From: a virus
DNA: 37,793 bases
Virus genome (UHGV): UHGV-0272092
Direction: 5' to 3' (one strand)
Each line of letters opens with the position of its first letter. Within the stretch, counting starts at the first letter, position 1. A program made the position numbers and the translations under genes. Below, one piece after another: positions 3,021 to 28,182 of the stretch. Below the pieces are notes generated by a model. That model saw nothing but the letters and a program-made list of their open reading frames with translations. It made no database searches and was not told where the DNA came from.

Positions 3021-3503
3021 CTATCTGGTCAAAGTGTCGTACTGTTTTTCGCAGACTCTTCCGGCTTCGGCTGCCCGGTCAGCATACTCTGCCAGTTGTC
3101 TGTTTCTCTCGAGAGATTTGCTGAGCACGTCGGCAAGCAAAACTCCGGTGTCTGCGGCTGACGACCCAGCGCCGACAATGGCGTTATACTGCCTGAGCTG
3201 CTCACGGATGGCAAAGAGTTGTTGCTGCAACCGGCCAGCGCTAGCGGCAGCATCAAGAGCATCATTGCGCGCCTGGTCGATCCTCTGCTGAGCTTCACGT
3301 TCATTGGTCACTTTCTCCTGTTCGTAGTACTGACGAACTTTGTCTTCTTCGGCTTTGCGGTCTTCTTCCGCCTGAGCATACCCGGCATCGTACTGGCGAC
3401 TGCCGTGTATATTCCAGGCAACCACTCCTGATATGACCAGAACAGCAAGCACTGCCACGATAAGAAACTGTTTCCAGTATGCTTTTACGAATGCCCAGAT
3501 CAT
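3021..3503 (-). CDS. Rz-like i-spanin
   Basis: N-terminal transmembrane helix ([18 protein letters not shown]) followed by a charged coiled-coil region; directly downstream of the endolysin with overlapping start/stop. Confidence 0.7.
3029..3265 (-). CDS. Rz1-like o-spanin lipoprotein, embedded in Rz in an alternate frame
   Basis: Lipobox LPLALAGC followed by a Pro/Ser-rich region, fully nested in the Rz gene. Start taken at MMLLML; the track ORF opens at 3304. Confidence 0.6.
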   Translation of the reverse strand: MMLLMLPLALAGCSNNSLPSVSSSGSITPLSALGRQPQTPEFCLPTCSANLSRETDNWQSMLTGQPKPEESAKNSTTL

Positions 3504-4129
3504 ACCGCCAGCACCTTACTGGCAGTGATGTACCGCGCTCGCCGGTCGTCGATGCCGTTCCGGCCACCATTGATAATCAGAGTTACACGTGCAATATCGC
3601 CGGTATACTTCATGCATCCTTTGCTGGCGAAGAACCACGCCGCGCTACGAGCCGCATATTCGTCCTGCGCCAGCAGTTCAGGGCTCTCCAGCAGGTTAAC
3701 CTTCAGACCGTTTCCGCAATCACGATAGTTATTCAAACCGGTAATCTGGATAAGTCCGCGCCCTCGGTAATTCCAGCCATCACCAGGGGCATTGTTCCCC
3801 ATGCGTTTGCTGTATACCAGATTTGCGATCGCGCGCTGGCGCTCAAGTGGCAATGGTGGTTCACCAGCACGGCGCCCCAGTGCATTAGCCTGCCCCTGAG
3901 TGAGACGCCCAGCCCGAACGAAGTTAGCCAGTCCGCTGACACTGTAGTTGAAATTCTCCTGCAACCTGGTGAAGCCCCCAGACTCATGCCCGACTTGAGC
4001 AATAAACATTGCCTGATCTTCTGCTTTGCTGATACCAAACTCTTTCATCGCAGAAGTTATATGCGAGAACCAGCGTGCGGCCAGTGCCTCGCTGATACCA
4101 GCAGCTCGCTGGAATTGTTTAATCTCCAT
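3500..4129 (-). CDS. endolysin, glycoside hydrolase family 19 (chitinase-like lysozyme)
   Basis: Motifs [12 protein letters not shown] and [11 protein letters not shown]; start moved to MEIKQ (ATG at 4129), which abuts the stop of the upstream membrane-protein gene. Track ORF extends to 4294. Confidence 0.85.
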
Positions 4130-22686: not shown

Positions 22687-22979
22687 TCCTGTTCACTGGC
22701 CTCTTTGGCCATCTTCAAATACTGTTCAGGGCAATGCGCCATAACGCGCTGAAACAGTTCCAGCGCCAGATTGCGTTGCCCCTCATTAAATGCCATTGCC
22801 ATAGCATCCATCGGAGAGATAGCGGAAAACACCCGGCCTTTCTCCAGCACCGACCAGACAACGCGACGCCCCTGTTCACTGCTCATGACAAAGCGAATGT
22901 CATCAATTTCACGCTGTGCCATGTCACGTTGCTTACGGGCGTTTTCTTCTTTCAGTTGATCGTCTTCGAAATCTGTCAT
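22683..22979 (-). CDS. hypothetical head-morphogenesis protein (98 aa)
   Basis: Overlapping start/stop with portal and scaffold genes. Confidence 0.4.
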   Translation of the reverse strand: MTDFEDDQLKEENARKQRDMAQREIDDIRFVMSSEQGRRVVWSVLEKGRVFSAISPMDAMAMAFNEGQRNLALELFQRVMAHCPEQYLKMAKEASEQE

Positions 22980-24655
22980 TGTGATTGCCCACCCTGACCA
23001 CTAACTGCATTCGCCATAGCTGACAAAACACTCGGATCCGAAGTTTTAGCTTCGCTTAGCGTCTTGGCACCCTGTGCCGCCGCCATCCCCATCGCCATCA
23101 TTTGTTGCTGCTGTTGTTGCTGTGCCCGTTGCTGGCGAGCCTGCTCAACCTGTTCCTGCGGAACAATGACGGTTGGAGACACTCCGGACATATCAGCGAA
23201 TGCATCGATCGCCTGATCAACGTTGAGTTTGTCGAGAGCTTCTGGTTTCGCTTGCGCAAGTTGACCAATGAAGTTAACCGTGGACGCCAGACTGGACAGG
23301 CCGATAGACTTCTGCGCCTGAGCCATGACGGAAATGTATTCGACCTTCAGGGGCATGCCTTCCATCGCGTCAGGCGGTGTCGGCAGCATGTTTTTACGCA
23401 CCATCATCGAGAAAGCGCGGTCAATGAGAGGATTAAGACATTCGTCGTTCAGACGCTCCAGAACCGGCCCCAACATCAGAAGTTTTTCTTCTTTCATTTC
23501 GATCACCGCTTCAACAGGCATCGAGCGGGTATTGATGTTCTGCAACATCATGAACAGATCGACAAAGTAGGCGCTGTTAATGATTTGACGGGTGTCCTGA
23601 ATGTCTGCCACCAAATCTGCTGTACTGGGGTTAACCAGATAAGCAGGCCTGAAACCATCCTGACCAGTAATCTGATCGATATACGTGATGTCGCCAGGAA
23701 GAAGGGAGGCACGCTGATTCTTGAGGGAAGTCGGAGCAACCATCGGCGGATTGGTGGCTTTATCAATCAACTGCGACTTGCGCTTCTGGAGAAGCTGCAA
23801 TGCCTTAACAGGTCCAAGCGCCAGCATACCCGGGCATGATGATCCATAAACATCTTCGCCGTTAACTTCCCAGCGCGGAGCCATAATTGGAAACTCATCG
23901 AATCCGGACTCACGCAACAACTTGTCGTTATCGCCACCAACCTCGTAATAAACCGATTTGAATGGCTTGTTCTTGCTATCCAGCTTCGATGTATCGCGGT
24001 CAATGTTCGGGTAAACCGAATGCATCACTTCAATCCACTTCTCGTAGGTGCCGCTTTCCCACATGCTTTTTACGGATTCGCTGACGTTATTTAGCCCGAA
24101 CTCCTGAACAAGCTGACGAACAGTCATAGAGAACTTGCGAAAACAGGTGTCCACACTGCCACGAGGTGAGTTAGCCAGGTAGTAACTGCCTATCGGGAAT
24201 GGCATTGTGCGAATGATGTCCTCGTCATCCTCCAGCACCGCCATTGCACCAGTGCTGTATGTGCCGAGGCTTCCGTATAACTGCGGAAGAGACTGGTAGA
24301 GATTCGACTTATTGAACATATCGTTCATGCGGTTCTGAACTGCCTCAAGCCACAACTTAACAGGGCCATAGTCCATCATTTCAGGATCTGGCGTAGCCAG
24401 GCGAAACCACGGACGGGCGGGGCTTGTTATGCCTGACATCATGCCGCTGGCAAGAGTGCGCGCCGCCATAGTCCCGGTCGAATCAATAATGCGTGTATTG
24501 CGTCGATCGTTACGGTTAACCTCAGAAGTCAGAAAGCGGGAACCACGCGGGTTGATGTAATCACTCAACTCGCGCCAGTGCGGCTCGAACGACTGACGCT
24601 CGCTTTCAAGTTGTGCGAACTGTTTGTTCAATCGCTCTTTAGTTGTTTCCGCCAT
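22976..24655 (-). CDS. portal protein (559 aa)
   Basis: Size, position after terminase, RBS GGAG 9 nt upstream of ATG 24655. Confidence 0.75.
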   Translation of the reverse strand: MAETTKERLNKQFAQLESERQSFEPHWRELSDYINPRGSRFLTSEVNRNDRRNTRIIDSTGTMAARTLASGMMSGITSPARPWFRLATPDPEMMDYGPVKLWLEAVQNRMNDMFNKSNLYQSLPQLYGSLGTYSTGAMAVLEDDEDIIRTMPFPIGSYYLANSPRGSVDTCFRKFSMTVRQLVQEFGLNNVSESVKSMWESGTYEKWIEVMHSVYPNIDRDTSKLDSKNKPFKSVYYEVGGDNDKLLRESGFDEFPIMAPRWEVNGEDVYGSSCPGMLALGPVKALQLLQKRKSQLIDKATNPPMVAPTSLKNQRASLLPGDITYIDQITGQDGFRPAYLVNPSTADLVADIQDTRQIINSAYFVDLFMMLQNINTRSMPVEAVIEMKEEKLLMLGPVLERLNDECLNPLIDRAFSMMVRKNMLPTPPDAMEGMPLKVEYISVMAQAQKSIGLSSLASTVNFIGQLAQAKPEALDKLNVDQAIDAFADMSGVSPTVIVPQEQVEQARQQRAQQQQQQQMMAMGMAAAQGAKTLSEAKTSDPSVLSAMANAVSGQGGQSQ

Positions 24656-24669
24656 TTCAATGACTCCGG

Positions 24670-24876
24670 TTACTGACCAAGCAGCGTTTTACCGCTGGTA
24701 TTAGCGGTTGATGTGTCGCCCTGAGAACCGGTAAGCAGCGTAGAACTACGACCAGCAGCAGCGCGACGGCGACGAGTTTCTTCGTCGCGGGCATCAACAA
24801 CGGCGGCATCCTGCTCCTGTGGTGCTGCCTGAACTTCTGGTGTTGCAGGCACTGATGGTGAGCTACCCATGCACAT
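24670..24876 (-). CDS. small protein upstream of portal (68 aa)
   Basis: Start context GGAGTCATTGATATG is near-identical to the portal start context GGAGTCATTGAAATG. Confidence 0.45.
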   Translation of the reverse strand: MCMGSSPSVPATPEVQAAPQEQDAAVVDARDEETRRRRAAAGRSSTLLTGSQGDTSTANTSGKTLLGQ

Positions 24877-24914
24877 ATCAATGACTCCGTACGCAATTAA
24901 ATTATTACCAATTT

Positions 24915-24925
24915 AACCACATATG
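24915..24925 (-). promoter_or_regulatory. conserved element AACCACATATG upstream of the head operon
   Basis: Identical to 8309-8319; preceded by ATTACC-N5. Confidence 0.45.
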
Positions 24926-24966
24926 ATTTATTTATCGTAGGTAGTTGACATTTAACGCACAAATTA

Positions 24967-24981
24967 TTACCTTTCAGGTAA
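24967..24981. promoter_or_regulatory. operator-like palindrome TTACCTTTCAGGTAA
   Basis: Identical to the copy at 8349-8363. Confidence 0.55.
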
Positions 24982-25303
24982 CCAAAGAGTTCATTCCGGT
25001 TACTAACCTGACTGGCTTGTCGTTAAATTGAACAGGTGGAGTGAGCTTTTATTTTGAGCAGTACGGCGTATGGCACATGCGCCGATAGCGGTCTGGATAC
25101 GTTTAAGGGGCACCCTCCCTTGCTCGGGCAAACGAACCAGGTAGCCGGAATGTGCAAGTCGAGCGGTTTTATTCCGCGCACGGGGATTCACCATCCCGGC
25201 GATTCGGTGTGACGCCTCGGAAGAGACGAGGGTACAACGATGAGAGCATTTATGGAGCCGCGACAAAGTGTGGCGCCTTAACAGGCTAAGTGCTCTCAGC
25301 GTT

Positions 25304-25380
25304 GTGGCATTAGCTCAGTTGGACAGAGCAACCGCCTTCTAAGCGGTTGGTCGCAGGTTCGAATCCTGCATGCCACGCCA
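25304..25380 (+). tRNA. tRNA-Arg (anticodon UCU), 77 nt including CCA
   Basis: Hand-folded cloverleaf: acceptor GTGGCAT/ATGCCAC, D-stem GCTC/GAGC, anticodon stem ACCGC/GCGGT with loop CTTCTAA, T-stem GCAGG/CCTGC with loop TTCGAAT, discriminator G, CCA. Confidence 0.85.
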
Positions 25381-25423
25381 GAATCACGCCTAAGGACCGT
25401 GATGCCAGAAGTTCCAGGTGCTT

Positions 25424-25466
25424 GGCGGTGATGGTTTCCCTTGAAGGACTATCACCGCCCTTTTTA
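25424..25466 (+). terminator. rho-independent terminator downstream of the tRNA
   Basis: Stem GGCGGTGATGG / CTATCACCGCC followed by CTTTTT. Confidence 0.65.
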
Positions 25467-25543
25467 CAGCAGGACGCCATTGCGATGACTTCATGCTGTA
25501 AACCAGTACAGCCACGGAAGGCATAACTCATTGCTTCCAGTTC

Positions 25544-25568
25544 GCCCGGTTCGTCCGGGCATTTTTTT
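25544..25568 (+). terminator. second terminator/attenuator-like hairpin immediately upstream of the RBS of the 25581 gene
   Basis: GCCCGG-TTCGT-CCGGGC followed by A and seven T, then AAGGTG RBS. Confidence 0.5.
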
Positions 25569-25580
25569 AAGGTGAAAATC

Positions 25581-25913
25581 ATGAAAGAGAAGACTGCAGC
25601 TGAGCGCTATGCCGCAGCTATCAATGCCGCGATGGCGATTGTAAACCTGCGTGAAGAGATTAAAGATCTCCTTGCAATTATCCATAACAACCTGACATGT
25701 ACAGAGTTGCTTGGCGGTCAGTACAACGGTGAGGCGGTGAAGGAGGCATTTAAAAATGCCGAGGTAGGAATAATTCCAGCAAACTATGTCAAGGCTGAAT
25801 GTGTGCTCCTAAAGGCACGAGTGAGTCTGCATGAAGATCCTGGTAATCTCGGTCGAACTGCAATGCGTTACGTGATAGACGAGTCGAATGCCAAACACAA
25901 TCTACCGAAATAA
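25581..25913 (+). CDS. hypothetical protein (110 aa), plus-strand gene between terminase and portal
   Basis: ATG 25581 with RBS AAGGTGA; track ORF opens at GTG 25572. No family recognised. Confidence 0.55.
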   Translation: MKEKTAAERYAAAINAAMAIVNLREEIKDLLAIIHNNLTCTELLGGQYNGEAVKEAFKNAEVGIIPANYVKAECVLLKARVSLHEDPGNLGRTAMRYVIDESNAKHNLPK

Positions 25914-25916
25914 CAC

Positions 25917-25928
25917 CGTGACATGTCA
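25917..25928. promoter_or_regulatory. 12-bp palindrome GTGACATGTCAC (copy 2 of 3)
   Basis: Exact repeat of 8722-8733 and 28183-28194. Confidence 0.5.
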
Positions 25929-26003
25929 CAAACAGACAGCCTATGAGCTGGCTTTGTTTTATCCTCACCAGAGGATATCAACGACATTATCCCCACCAGC
26001 GGA

Positions 26004-27479
26004 TTAAGCATAGGGATCGTAATCTGTGATGGCCTTGCCTTGCTGGTTCTGCTGACCGGGAATTCGCAGACGCTTCGACACAGGGAACGCAAACGTCAGC
26101 AGTAGCGCATCGCCTTTACCAGGAGAACGCCCAAGTCGCTCTTTGATATCTTCCTTCGGTTCGATAACGATTTTACCGTCCACTCGAACTTTGTACTCTG
26201 CTGCCGACAGGTCGTCCGCTGTTTCCTGGTCATCCAGCATGCCGCCCAGCCTCAGCCATGTCTTGCATGAATTGAACATCTCCCCACGCTTGTTGAGCAT
26301 CTGCGGGTCAGTAGACGCGCCACCGAACGGAACAAGTTGCCATGTACGACCCCATCCGTCACCGATTGACTTCAGACCGGTTCCGTAACCGAAGTCGATG
26401 AACACCGCGTCAGCCTGATACTGGTCTTCAAAGTCAGCGATACGCTTCGCCATAATCAGATCGTCGGTAGTCTTGTTGCCAGTCCACAGCACCTTACTGT
26501 GTAGCCCCTGCCGCAGGTATATCACCGCGTCATCAACGCCTGAATATGCCGGGTCAACACCGATTATCACCGGAGCATGCGCCACCTGCGCAGCGGTTAC
26601 CACCCGTTTCATTGCCTCATCAGTAAGACCGGTAGGGATAAACTGCAATTCAGATGCATCAGGGAATATGCCGCGCACACGGATTTTAACGAAGTCGCTG
26701 TCTTCCCCGTAGTCATCAACCCATTTCTGCAACTGCTGTTTGTTAGTGCCTTCCACCGTTCGGCTGTCAATCTGCGCAGTTTTCCAGCGGTGTTTATATT
26801 TGCGGAAACATTCGCGGAAACGTCCGGTATTACGCGTCGGGTTTCCGAACGCCACCCAGATAATCTCAGTGTCTTCGTCCGTTAGTGCACCCTCGGCAAC
26901 TTCCCACACCAGATCCGCAATGTTCGACGCTTCATCGAATACCACGATGATGCGTTTGCGCTCGTTGTGTAGTCCGGCGAATGCCTCAGTGTTGTGCTCA
27001 GACCAGGGGATTGCGTCAGCTCGCCACCGCTTGTCGTGTCCAGGATCATTGCTGTACATCGCGGTAGCGGTACAGGTAAACCAGTCTTTCGTGATAGCAA
27101 GGTTCGACCACTTGATAATTTCCGGCCAGGTCTTCGTTCGTAGCTGGTTGTCGGTGTTGGCGGTCACCACGACCTTACAATCCTCGCAAGTGGACATGCC
27201 CCAGTTGATCAGCATTGAGATGAATGCGGATTTACCAATACCGTGACCCGAAGCACGTGCCAGCATAAGCGGCTGATAGCGCGTCTCTGGATTCTGCAGG
27301 TGATCACGTATCTCTCGGAACGCATCAGCCTGCCACTGACGTGGGCCGGTAGCATGTGCCAGTTCAGTCCCCTCTTCCCCCCACGGGAACGCATAGAGGG
27401 CATAGCCAAGCGGATCGTGAGTGAACCCTGCAATATCCTCGATCAACTGCTCTTCAGGAGATAACGCTGTATCTGTCAC
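26004..27479 (-). CDS. terminase large subunit (491 aa)
   Basis: Size, position downstream of the small subunit with 4-nt overlap; N-terminal ATPase-like and C-terminal nuclease-like composition. Confidence 0.8.
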   Translation of the reverse strand: MTDTALSPEEQLIEDIAGFTHDPLGYALYAFPWGEEGTELAHATGPRQWQADAFREIRDHLQNPETRYQPLMLARASGHGIGKSAFISMLINWGMSTCEDCKVVVTANTDNQLRTKTWPEIIKWSNLAITKDWFTCTATAMYSNDPGHDKRWRADAIPWSEHNTEAFAGLHNERKRIIVVFDEASNIADLVWEVAEGALTDEDTEIIWVAFGNPTRNTGRFRECFRKYKHRWKTAQIDSRTVEGTNKQQLQKWVDDYGEDSDFVKIRVRGIFPDASELQFIPTGLTDEAMKRVVTAAQVAHAPVIIGVDPAYSGVDDAVIYLRQGLHSKVLWTGNKTTDDLIMAKRIADFEDQYQADAVFIDFGYGTGLKSIGDGWGRTWQLVPFGGASTDPQMLNKRGEMFNSCKTWLRLGGMLDDQETADDLSAAEYKVRVDGKIVIEPKEDIKERLGRSPGKGDALLLTFAFPVSKRLRIPGQQNQQGKAITDYDPYA

Positions 27480-28072
27480 TGATTACCATCCTGACGTTCT
27501 TTGAGTCGCTTCCTGGCTGCTGCTATGCGATCAGCAATTGTCACATTCACATTAACATCCAGACGTTCTTTGAACGCGTTGACATCAACATGCTTACCAA
27601 TCAGCTCAAGGTTCTTCACCTTGTCAGGCCATTTAATTTTTTTGAGGATTGTCTCTATCGAATCCTCGTTCATGTTCATGATGGTCGATGACAGATCAAA
27701 GCCACTAAGCGTAGTGCGCCAGATTTTCGGCCACTCACGGATTGGTTTAAGGCTCCCATCGTCGTTGAGGATGTCGATCACGTCCATCTGGTCGATCTCC
27801 ACCAGGCGCATGAGAACGTAATCAGCACTGACGCGCATTCGTTTGTTGCGCTCCTCCATCAACTCGGCAATCCGTTTTTGAATGCGTTCATCGCGCATCA
27901 TGACACTGGCTTTAACTGCCGCTGTATTTGGGGAGAATCCTGCGTTAATCGCTGCCTGAGTCTGGTTTTCAGGCGTTTTGATGTATGACTGGCAATAAGC
28001 CTCCTGCATTGCTGTTAGTGGCTTAAATTGCGTTGATTTGCGTTTATAGGTTTTAGGTTCAGCAGGCATCAT
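27476..28072 (-). CDS. terminase small subunit
   Basis: Position; start moved to MMPAEPK (ATG 28072, RBS GGTGG) because the upstream extension to 28150 contains a terminator hairpin and direct repeats. Confidence 0.65.
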   Translation of the reverse strand: MMPAEPKTYKRKSTQFKPLTAMQEAYCQSYIKTPENQTQAAINAGFSPNTAAVKASVMMRDERIQKRIAELMEERNKRMRVSADYVLMRLVEIDQMDVIDILNDDGSLKPIREWPKIWRTTLSGFDLSSTIMNMNEDSIETILKKIKWPDKVKNLELIGKHVDVNAFKERLDVNVNVTIADRIAAARKRLKERQDGNQ

Positions 28073-28081
28073 AACCACCGT

Positions 28082-28111
28082 GGTAATAGTTACCGTTGTG
28101 GTAATAGTACC
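28082..28111 (-). repeat. tandem direct repeat GGTAATAGT(T)ACC x2 directly upstream of the small terminase start
   Basis: GGTAATAGTTACC (28082-28094) and GGTAATAGTACC (28100-28111). Confidence 0.5.
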
Positions 28112-28141
28112 ATGCAAAATAAAGCCGCCATAGTTGGCGGC
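28112..28141 (-). terminator. rho-independent terminator between the accessory early genes and the terminase genes
   Basis: Stem GCCGCCA / TGGCGGC; on the minus strand followed by TTTATTTTG. Confidence 0.6.
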
Positions 28142-28182
28142 AGTATTCAAAACCCATCAAATTCATCATGCATAATCTACTC

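Follow-up and report, generated by a model that had tools for sequence, protein, structure and literature searches.

The window considered in this study, 37,793 nucleotides (nt) of viral DNA recorded as UHGV-0272092, is a phiV10/epsilon15-like (Uetakevirus) prophage. The subject is an open reading frame (ORF) of 110 amino acids (aa) on its + strand (ATG at 25581, TAA at 25911-25913), together with the two terminators, here called T1 and T2, and the Shine-Dalgarno sequence (SD) that precede it. Comparison with related phages indicates that T1, the SD and what lies between them form a conserved module belonging to the locus, the ORF behind it being all that changes. The reading I favor, and to which I would give an even chance, is that the 1.1-kb interval between terL and gp3, which reads on the + strand, opposite to the flanking genes, is a conserved unit with an exchangeable cargo, in which the 110-aa ORF is a rare allele with a counter-defence function, expressed by polymerase that reads through T1 and T2 from a promoter upstream.

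The leader, its terminators and the cargo slot

The phage phiV10 is about 99% identical to the window on both sides of the ORF. Immediately 3' of AAGGTGA the two sequences part, and they stay different as far as the stop codon; the ORF of phiV10 at this place, of 123 aa, is unrelated. Over the 200 nt between the end of the tRNA gene and the SD, phages of E. coli, Salmonella (epsilon15, SPN1S, PAT1), Klebsiella and Enterobacter show 74-99% identity. Of 5,426 complete E. coli genomes, 508 (9%) carry the leader and 2 the 110-aa ORF. These two, BCE049 (NZ_CP042250; locus L003) and C6 (locus L004), have the identical ORF, the part of each locus concerned being 3160-4010. Both match the window to about 25200; past that point a different RNA stands where the tRNA would be, T1 and a variable stem-loop (module D, described below) are of other versions, and T2 and the SD are the same. 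Leader modules and cargo therefore reassort by recombination. Conservation of the T1-T2 segment does not depend on which cargo follows.

A broader sample was taken from IMG/VR, which was scanned for an invariant 15-mer, CGCCATTGCGATGAC, that lies between T1 and T2. The leaders sampled are those that carry the 15-mer, and all census counts given here are among the matches listed. At least 83 of the 120 matches listed are true homologous loci; 81 of the 83 carry T2, and in 64 of those 81 leaders the SD comes directly after the U-run. Covariation and cargo content were assessed in a set of 77 distinct leaders or loci.

The slot that receives the cargo has T2-U7-AAGGTG as its conserved left flank, the SD AAGGTG (25569-25574) being part of it, and as its right flank a palindrome, GTGACATGTCAC (25918-25929), directly after the cargo stop, together with the element T3 described below. 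The same palindrome stands behind the stop codons of unrelated cargos in 11 of 15 loci and so marks the right border of the slot; it could be a recombination site or a binding site. On the left, an identical T2-U7-AAGGTG junction precedes at least 10 unrelated ORFs in related phages. The first-pass annotation of the window, made from its letters, had placed the second terminator 5 nt before the ribosome binding site and had read so tight a junction as control specific to this gene. The distance is imprecise, since the gap between T-run and SD is 0 nt (and 8 nt separate the end of the T2 stem from the SD), and the reading is not supported, since the junction is shared with genes unrelated to this one.

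What does stand from that annotation is the presence of two tandem terminators ahead of the gene, since both hairpins and their T-runs are seen in the sequence, are specific to the + strand and covary. T1, the intrinsic terminator of the tRNA, is a 14-pair hairpin (25424-25459) followed by CTTTTT (U5), the element extending to 25465; its folding energy is -22.8 kcal/mol (z = -5.0 against shuffles). T2 has six G-C pairs and a 5-nt loop (GCCCGG-UUCGU-CCGGGC, 25544-25560), then an A and U7 (T7 at 25562-25568), with a folding energy of -13.1 kcal/mol (z = -3.2 against shuffles). By a consensus scan, there are 3 terminator-like sites in 24850-25600, as compared to 0.8 expected. T-runs are found 3' of the two hairpins on the + strand only, so that neither is a terminator of the - strand.

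The covariation among the 77 distinct leaders takes the form, in T2, of a double compensatory change, with GG/CC in 57-58 of them, AC/GT in 19 (the version found in Salmonella-type leaders) and only a single pair broken. The stem of T1 occurs in three or more covarying versions, one pair being AU in 31 leaders, GC in 34 and CG in 6. Individual phages depart from the pattern: BUCT711 has a different hairpin in the place of T1, OXA245phi3.2 is without T2, and in epsilon15 the tRNA and half of T1 are gone, T2 and the stem-loop SL-M (see below) being kept. The epsilon15 record annotates the same T2 hairpin as a rho-independent terminator. A terminator score came to 35 for T2 and 4.5 for T1, values that are indicative only. 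With their GC-rich stems, U-runs and compensatory changes, T1 and T2 are, as far as sequence comparison can tell, real and selected intrinsic terminators.

A third element, T3, closes the series of + strand terminators ahead of the terL stop (26004). In the window it is a degenerate hairpin (CAGC-CTATGA-GCTG followed by TTTGTTTT, 25937-25960) whose energy of -8.4 kcal/mol is no better than that of shuffles. Its counterpart in relatives is strong, a GCCCGC...GCGGGC-TTTT hairpin that directly adjoins the terL stop and has covarying stems.

Cargo genes of sister phages and the 110-aa protein

Over the 77 loci, the slot holds 18 ORF clusters, a few of them probably spurious. Members of the Acb4 family, to which PF13876 corresponds (PMC11722364), are found in 31 loci (Pfam PF13876 at E = 6e-35; a profile matches PDB 9e4w, "anti-CBASS 4", at E = 2e-4). 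The family phrog_4846 occupies 12 loci, coiled-coil proteins of 201-296 aa 7, a PAT1-like family 6 and Tad2-like proteins 5 (PF11195 at E = 4e-26; solved Tad2 structures at E = 5e-16). The family of the 110-aa protein occurs in 3, and a protein with the Acb2/Tad1 hairpin domain in one (PF24729 at E = 4e-17). The other clusters are singletons, and about eight of the cargo families in the slot are uncharacterised. Homologues of Acb4, Tad2 or Acb2/Tad1, i.e. of families experimentally established as sponges of immune signals, are thus carried by 37 of the 77 loci. The locus is in this sense an accessory hotspot: unrelated genes, known counter-defence genes included, alternate between conserved flanks. 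Because its sister alleles include families of immune-signal sponges, the 110-aa gene is most likely a counter-defence gene as well.

Some cargos are undocked from the SD. These are the coiled-coil proteins of 201-296 aa, and they come with a promoter-like site of their own; in BUCT711 (L021, 1618-1646) it reads GTGACT-17-TATACT and lies between T2 and the gene. A promoter-like site placed after T2 fits the notion of T2 as an effective stop, and the coiled-coil cargos may be expressed independently, possibly in lysogens.

The 110-aa protein (RefSeq WP_001561052.1) belongs to phrog_27507, a group of unknown function, and is here considered a candidate for counter-defence. Relative to a homologue in Klebsiella oxytoca, its ratio of nonsynonymous to synonymous substitution rates (dN/dS) is 0.09, and to judge from such comparisons the ORF is a real protein under purifying selection. 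A word-indexed search of 5.8 billion proteins gave 15 clusters, all of them from Enterobacteriaceae, and the gene sits in the T2-SD slot in all three clusters whose contigs were read. An exhaustive profile search of 1.84 billion representatives (50% identity) gave 45 proteins of 101-147 aa.

The first-pass annotation could assign the protein to no family, and profile and structure searches lead to the same result. There was no Pfam family at E <= 0.1 and none in NCBIfam; no PADLOC defence family appeared at E <= 1; and none of 50 family members matched the models PF13876, PF11195 or PF24729. A tblastn search of 50,697 phage records with the protein and two remote relatives found nothing, and WP_001561052 was not found in the literature. 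AlphaFold (AF2) gives a model with a predicted local distance difference test score (pLDDT) of 95.5 when supplied with an alignment of 50 sequences, as against 57 with 12 close homologues. The modeled fold, a long N-terminal helix packed on an alpha-beta-beta-beta-alpha unit, has no match in PDB or BFVD. Since the protein did not turn out to be a structural or assembly component, the first observation is reinterpreted here and not refuted.

The genomic contexts of three remote homologues were read. One homologue directly follows a Lockin gene, with a Tad3 gene close by; Lockin is a family of anti-Thoeris sponges (PMC12265669). Another is part of an early-type array with genes for SSB, Rad52 and an exonuclease, and the third is in an array of small genes of unknown function.

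Predicted promoter, leader RNA and the proposed route of expression

A predicted sigma-70 promoter (24945-24973, + strand) lies about 600 nt upstream of the ORF and consists of TTGACA (24945-24950), a 17-nt spacer and TACCTT (24968-24973). TTGAC and TACC(T/C)T are invariant in 12 phages, and the spacer varies in sequence with no insertions or deletions. Overlapping the predicted -10 element is an operator-like palindrome, TTACCTTTCAGGTAA (24967-24981). Palindromes of the form TTACC-N5-GGTAA occur 11 times in the window, as compared to 0.66 expected, at 2746, 8349, 24967, 28072, 28090, 32161, 32223, 34462, 34510, 35222 and 35284, and another of these copies lies just downstream of a TTGACA promoter-like element. 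In the epsilon15 record, the equivalent 17-bp sites are annotated "repressor; lysogeny" and include sites ahead of terS, gp3 and the tail fibre gene, which suggests direct control of the structural operons by repressor through these palindromes. The assignment as operators follows from that annotation and from the number of repeats. I infer that the promoter of the + strand unit is controlled by repressor and would be active at infection or induction and not in the lysogen.

Neither a consensus scan nor inspection by eye brought out a sigma-70-like site between T1 and the ATG, weak or unusual promoters being possible. The T1-T2 interval and the - strand of the invariant block were considered as places for a sigma-70 promoter and rejected, since neither eye nor scan picked out an acceptable -10 element. 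The lack of a promoter-like site between T1 and the ATG implies that expression of the cargo involves read-through of terminators.

Between the predicted promoter and the tRNA there is a conserved non-coding leader of about 300 nt (24985-25303, + strand). Across four host genera it retains long invariant blocks (e.g. GGTAGCCGGAATGTGCAAG and CCTCGGAAGAGACGAGG) and shows some compensatory pairs, though few; it matches no Rfam family and is probably a structured RNA. For the equivalent region, the epsilon15 record has a predicted RNase III site on the other strand. There follows, on the + strand, a gene for tRNA-Arg with anticodon TCT (UCU) and an encoded CCA (25304-25380; found by ARAGORN, and by Rfam RF00005 with 73.3 bits). 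This position is polymorphic: other members carry unrelated sequences of 95-250 nt with the same ends, GTTGTGG...CCACAACCCA, and in these (e.g. L005 3694-3792 and L003 about 3560-3800) ARAGORN calls no tRNA. Directly 3' of the tRNA, a small hairpin, ATCACGCC-TAA-GGACCGTGAT (25383-25403, + strand; -5.9 kcal/mol, z = -3.1), is nearly invariant in 13 of 15 leaders.

Two further + strand stem-loops lie between T1 and T2. The first, SL-M (UUUACAGCA...UGCUGUAAA, 25463-25502; -12.6 kcal/mol, z = -3.4), presents the 15-mer named above as its apex (25475-25489). The apex is identical in 14 of 15 reference phages, among which phages of E. coli, Salmonella, Klebsiella and Enterobacter are represented; its invariance in all 77 distinct leaders follows from the design of the search, which was seeded with it. 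One pair of the SL-M stem is GC in 54 of the 77 and AU in 22. The second is module D (about 25511-25543), a variable stem-loop that is deleted in PAS61 and replaced in Klebsiella-type leaders by another allele between conserved flanks. Hypothetical proteins of the - strand have been annotated across the tRNA/terminator region, namely PhiV10p04 (L001 2211-2462) and similar coding sequences in TL-2011b, BUCT554 and SPN1S. They overlap the conserved RNA elements and are probably not genes.

What sequence comparison shows is the anatomy of the unit, its conserved and covarying hairpins, the exchange of cargos and the identity of those in sister phages, and purifying selection on the ORF; from these I infer a promoter under repressor control, a read-through route to the cargo and a counter-defence function for it. 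The unit runs, from 5' to 3', as predicted promoter with overlapping operator, structured leader of about 300 nt, tRNA-Arg(UCU) or another small RNA, T1, SL-M, T2, fixed SD, one exchangeable cargo ORF, conserved palindrome and T3. At infection or induction, with the operator free of repressor, host RNA polymerase would start at 24945-24973, and most transcripts would stop at T1 or T2, yielding the tRNA plus a short RNA trailer. The remaining minority would pass both terminators, by constitutive partial read-through, and carry the cargo ORF. This could be translated efficiently from the unstructured U7-AAGGUG-N6-AUG, in which the U-run would double as a U-rich stretch before a strong SD. T1, T2 and T3 would stop transcription of the + strand only, so that terL would be shielded from antisense transcription while late transcription, of the - strand, would pass.

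The first-pass annotation supposed instead that read-through is conditional, by attenuation or antitermination. In such a scheme a cis-acting RNA, either the structured leader of about 300 nt or the apex of SL-M (perhaps in the manner of HK022 put or Bacillus EAR), or else a factor bound to the RNA, would let polymerase pass T1 and T2 only under certain conditions. The idea has its attractions, for T2 looks strong and yet the cargo ORFs docked on it are under purifying selection; SL-M, with an apex invariant in four host genera and a stem that covaries, is placed between the terminators; and the long, conserved leader comes after the predicted promoter, where put-type elements sit. I nevertheless find it unlikely. 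A reading of the aligned leaders turned up no segment complementary to either arm of T2 (GCCCGG/CCGGGC), hence no classical antiterminator hairpin, and T2 is intact in both minimum-free-energy and centroid folds. Rfam yielded no riboswitch, leader or antitermination family at threshold. Attenuation through a leader peptide from the ATG at 25486, within the invariant block, was rejected, since the short ORF that begins there shifts in frame and length among phages. SL-M is downstream of T1 and so cannot help polymerase past it, and epsilon15, with SL-M and T2 present, does without the tRNA and half of T1 and has no annotated antiterminator of the Q or N type. Regulated attenuation is in this light unsupported. 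A different idea, which I rate as improbable and which is compatible with the favored reading, takes the interval from T1 to T2 (about 25466-25568) to be the real product, as a small RNA (sRNA) of about 100 nt of the Hfq type or a tRNA 3' trailer like 3'ETS-leuZ, with T2 as its terminator, module D as its exchangeable seed and the ORF as a passenger. The anatomy is typical of an sRNA, with two stem-loops and then a GC hairpin with U7, and both the conservation of the segment whatever the cargo and the alternative alleles of module D would be in keeping with it. Module D moreover contains CATTGCTTCCAGT (25529-25541), which matches 13 nt of the RyhB consensus core exactly and is closely followed by a terminator hairpin; 35 of the 77 leaders have it, and 50 have TTGCTTCC. 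A homologue of RyhB was nonetheless rejected: the Rfam model (RF00057) scores 22 bits, below its gathering score of 55, and a leader lacking the 13-mer scores no differently, so the score reflects the terminator. The remainder of RyhB is absent, and the RNA of the window is not a member of that family. Also against an sRNA are the loss of module D in PAS61 and of T2 in OXA245phi3.2, the lack of a promoter-like site for such an RNA and the standing of the RNA species itself as a prediction. A possible pairing of the apex with the start of the portal gene fares no better, for the complementarity, seen in the window as a site with two mismatches (24650-24664), is missing from phages of Salmonella and Klebsiella even though these have the block. 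Among known prophage sRNAs, the Pas sRNA, of lambdoid/Stx phages, was considered and is unrelated to the locus.

A third possibility, which I take to be quite remote, is that the 110-aa protein is a moron of the lysogenic-conversion kind, made in the lysogen to the benefit of the host (superinfection exclusion or defence), its level kept low by the terminators. The first-pass annotation had called the gene moron-like, and as to location this is correct. The ORF is an accessory insert, antisense between terL (26004-27479) and the genes for the gp3 homologue (68 aa, 24670-24876) and the portal (22976-24655), which like terS (27476-28150) are on the - strand. This is the classical position and orientation of a moron, with a terminator downstream, in a phage that is temperate, and at least one type of cargo in the slot has its own promoter-like site. 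Expression in the lysogen is what has become doubtful, because the only conserved promoter-like element upstream is overlapped by an operator palindrome. In addition, the protein has no PADLOC match, the 37 sister loci noted above carry families of counter-defence and not of defence, and remote homologues lie in early-type arrays of contigs that are not prophages. A separate feature of this neighborhood is a 20-bp palindrome, TTAAATTATTACCAATTTAA (24897-24916), 20-40 nt upstream of the gp3 start and invariant in 12 phages.

Several considerations weigh against the reading of a counter-defence cargo reached by constitutive read-through. The promoter, the efficiency of termination and the read-through are predictions, and the predicted -10 element, TACCTT, matches the consensus at three of six positions and falls below the threshold of the consensus scan. 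Two good terminators in series make a counter-intuitive design before a gene that would be needed early. The counter-defence function is a matter of guilt by association. The protein stands outside every known anti-defence family searched, its modeled fold has no match even among solved sponges, and only one of the three remote-homologue contexts read has known anti-defence genes. Finally, hotspots can also carry genes of defence or exclusion, and the coiled-coil cargos have a promoter-like site of their own.

A more ambitious version of the same reading, advanced tentatively and as possible rather than probable, would have the 110-aa protein represent a new counter-defence family with a novel fold, and the T2-SD slot an undescribed anti-defence hotspot of Uetakevirus in which about eight other uncharacterised cargo families would be immune-evasion genes too; SL-M, as a cis element or as part of an sRNA, may on this view govern how much polymerase reaches the cargo. 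A search of the literature found no link of phiV10 or Uetakevirus to small RNAs or to anti-defence hotspots.

Significance and comparison with known systems

Uetakevirus prophages are common, and the genus infects Salmonella, Klebsiella and Enterobacter as well. If the slot is a hotspot of counter-defence, then its borders, T2-U7-AAGGTG on the left and GTGACATGTCAC with T3 on the right, offer a sequence handle by which genes of immune evasion might be harvested. First among the candidates would be the 110-aa protein, for which the model is confident and no relative by fold is known. The architecture also poses a testable question, how genes needed early come to be expressed when a tRNA and then two good terminators stand before them.

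Morons, as defined in HK97 and HK022, are extra genes with their own promoter and terminator that are expressed from the prophage. The cargo of the window resembles those of the lambdoid phages in being an extra gene, absent or different in close relatives, that lies between essential genes of the opposite strand and is followed by a terminator. It differs in that no promoter of its own was found, in that it stands behind two terminators and in that its SD is shared with alternative cargos, while the promoter-like element upstream, with its operator, suggests expression outside of lysogeny.

The late region of Stx phages is arranged as PR'-tR'-tRNA genes-stx, and read-through is brought about by the Q antiterminator. 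There too a promoter, one or more terminators and one or more tRNA genes, a tRNA for arginine among them, precede a cargo that is transcribed only when polymerase passes the terminators. The Stx unit, however, is part of the late operon, whereas the unit of Uetakevirus is antisense within the packaging/head region and has no known antiterminator. A dual-output terminator has been described for IsrK of Gifsy-1, where a stop at the terminator is reported to give a short RNA and read-through a longer mRNA from one unit (PMC4825925). The likeness lies in that dual output; at the locus of Uetakevirus, the two isoforms are a proposal.

The closest comparison is with the sponge loci themselves (Acb4/PF13876, Tad2/PF11195 and Acb2-Tad1). 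Unlike these families, the 110-aa protein has an activity that is predicted, and it matches none of them in sequence or fold. Like them, it is a small protein encoded by a single gene, it has a remote homologue that adjoins genes for Tad3 and Lockin, and it occupies the same slot, behind the same T2-SD junction, that the sponges occupy in sister phages.

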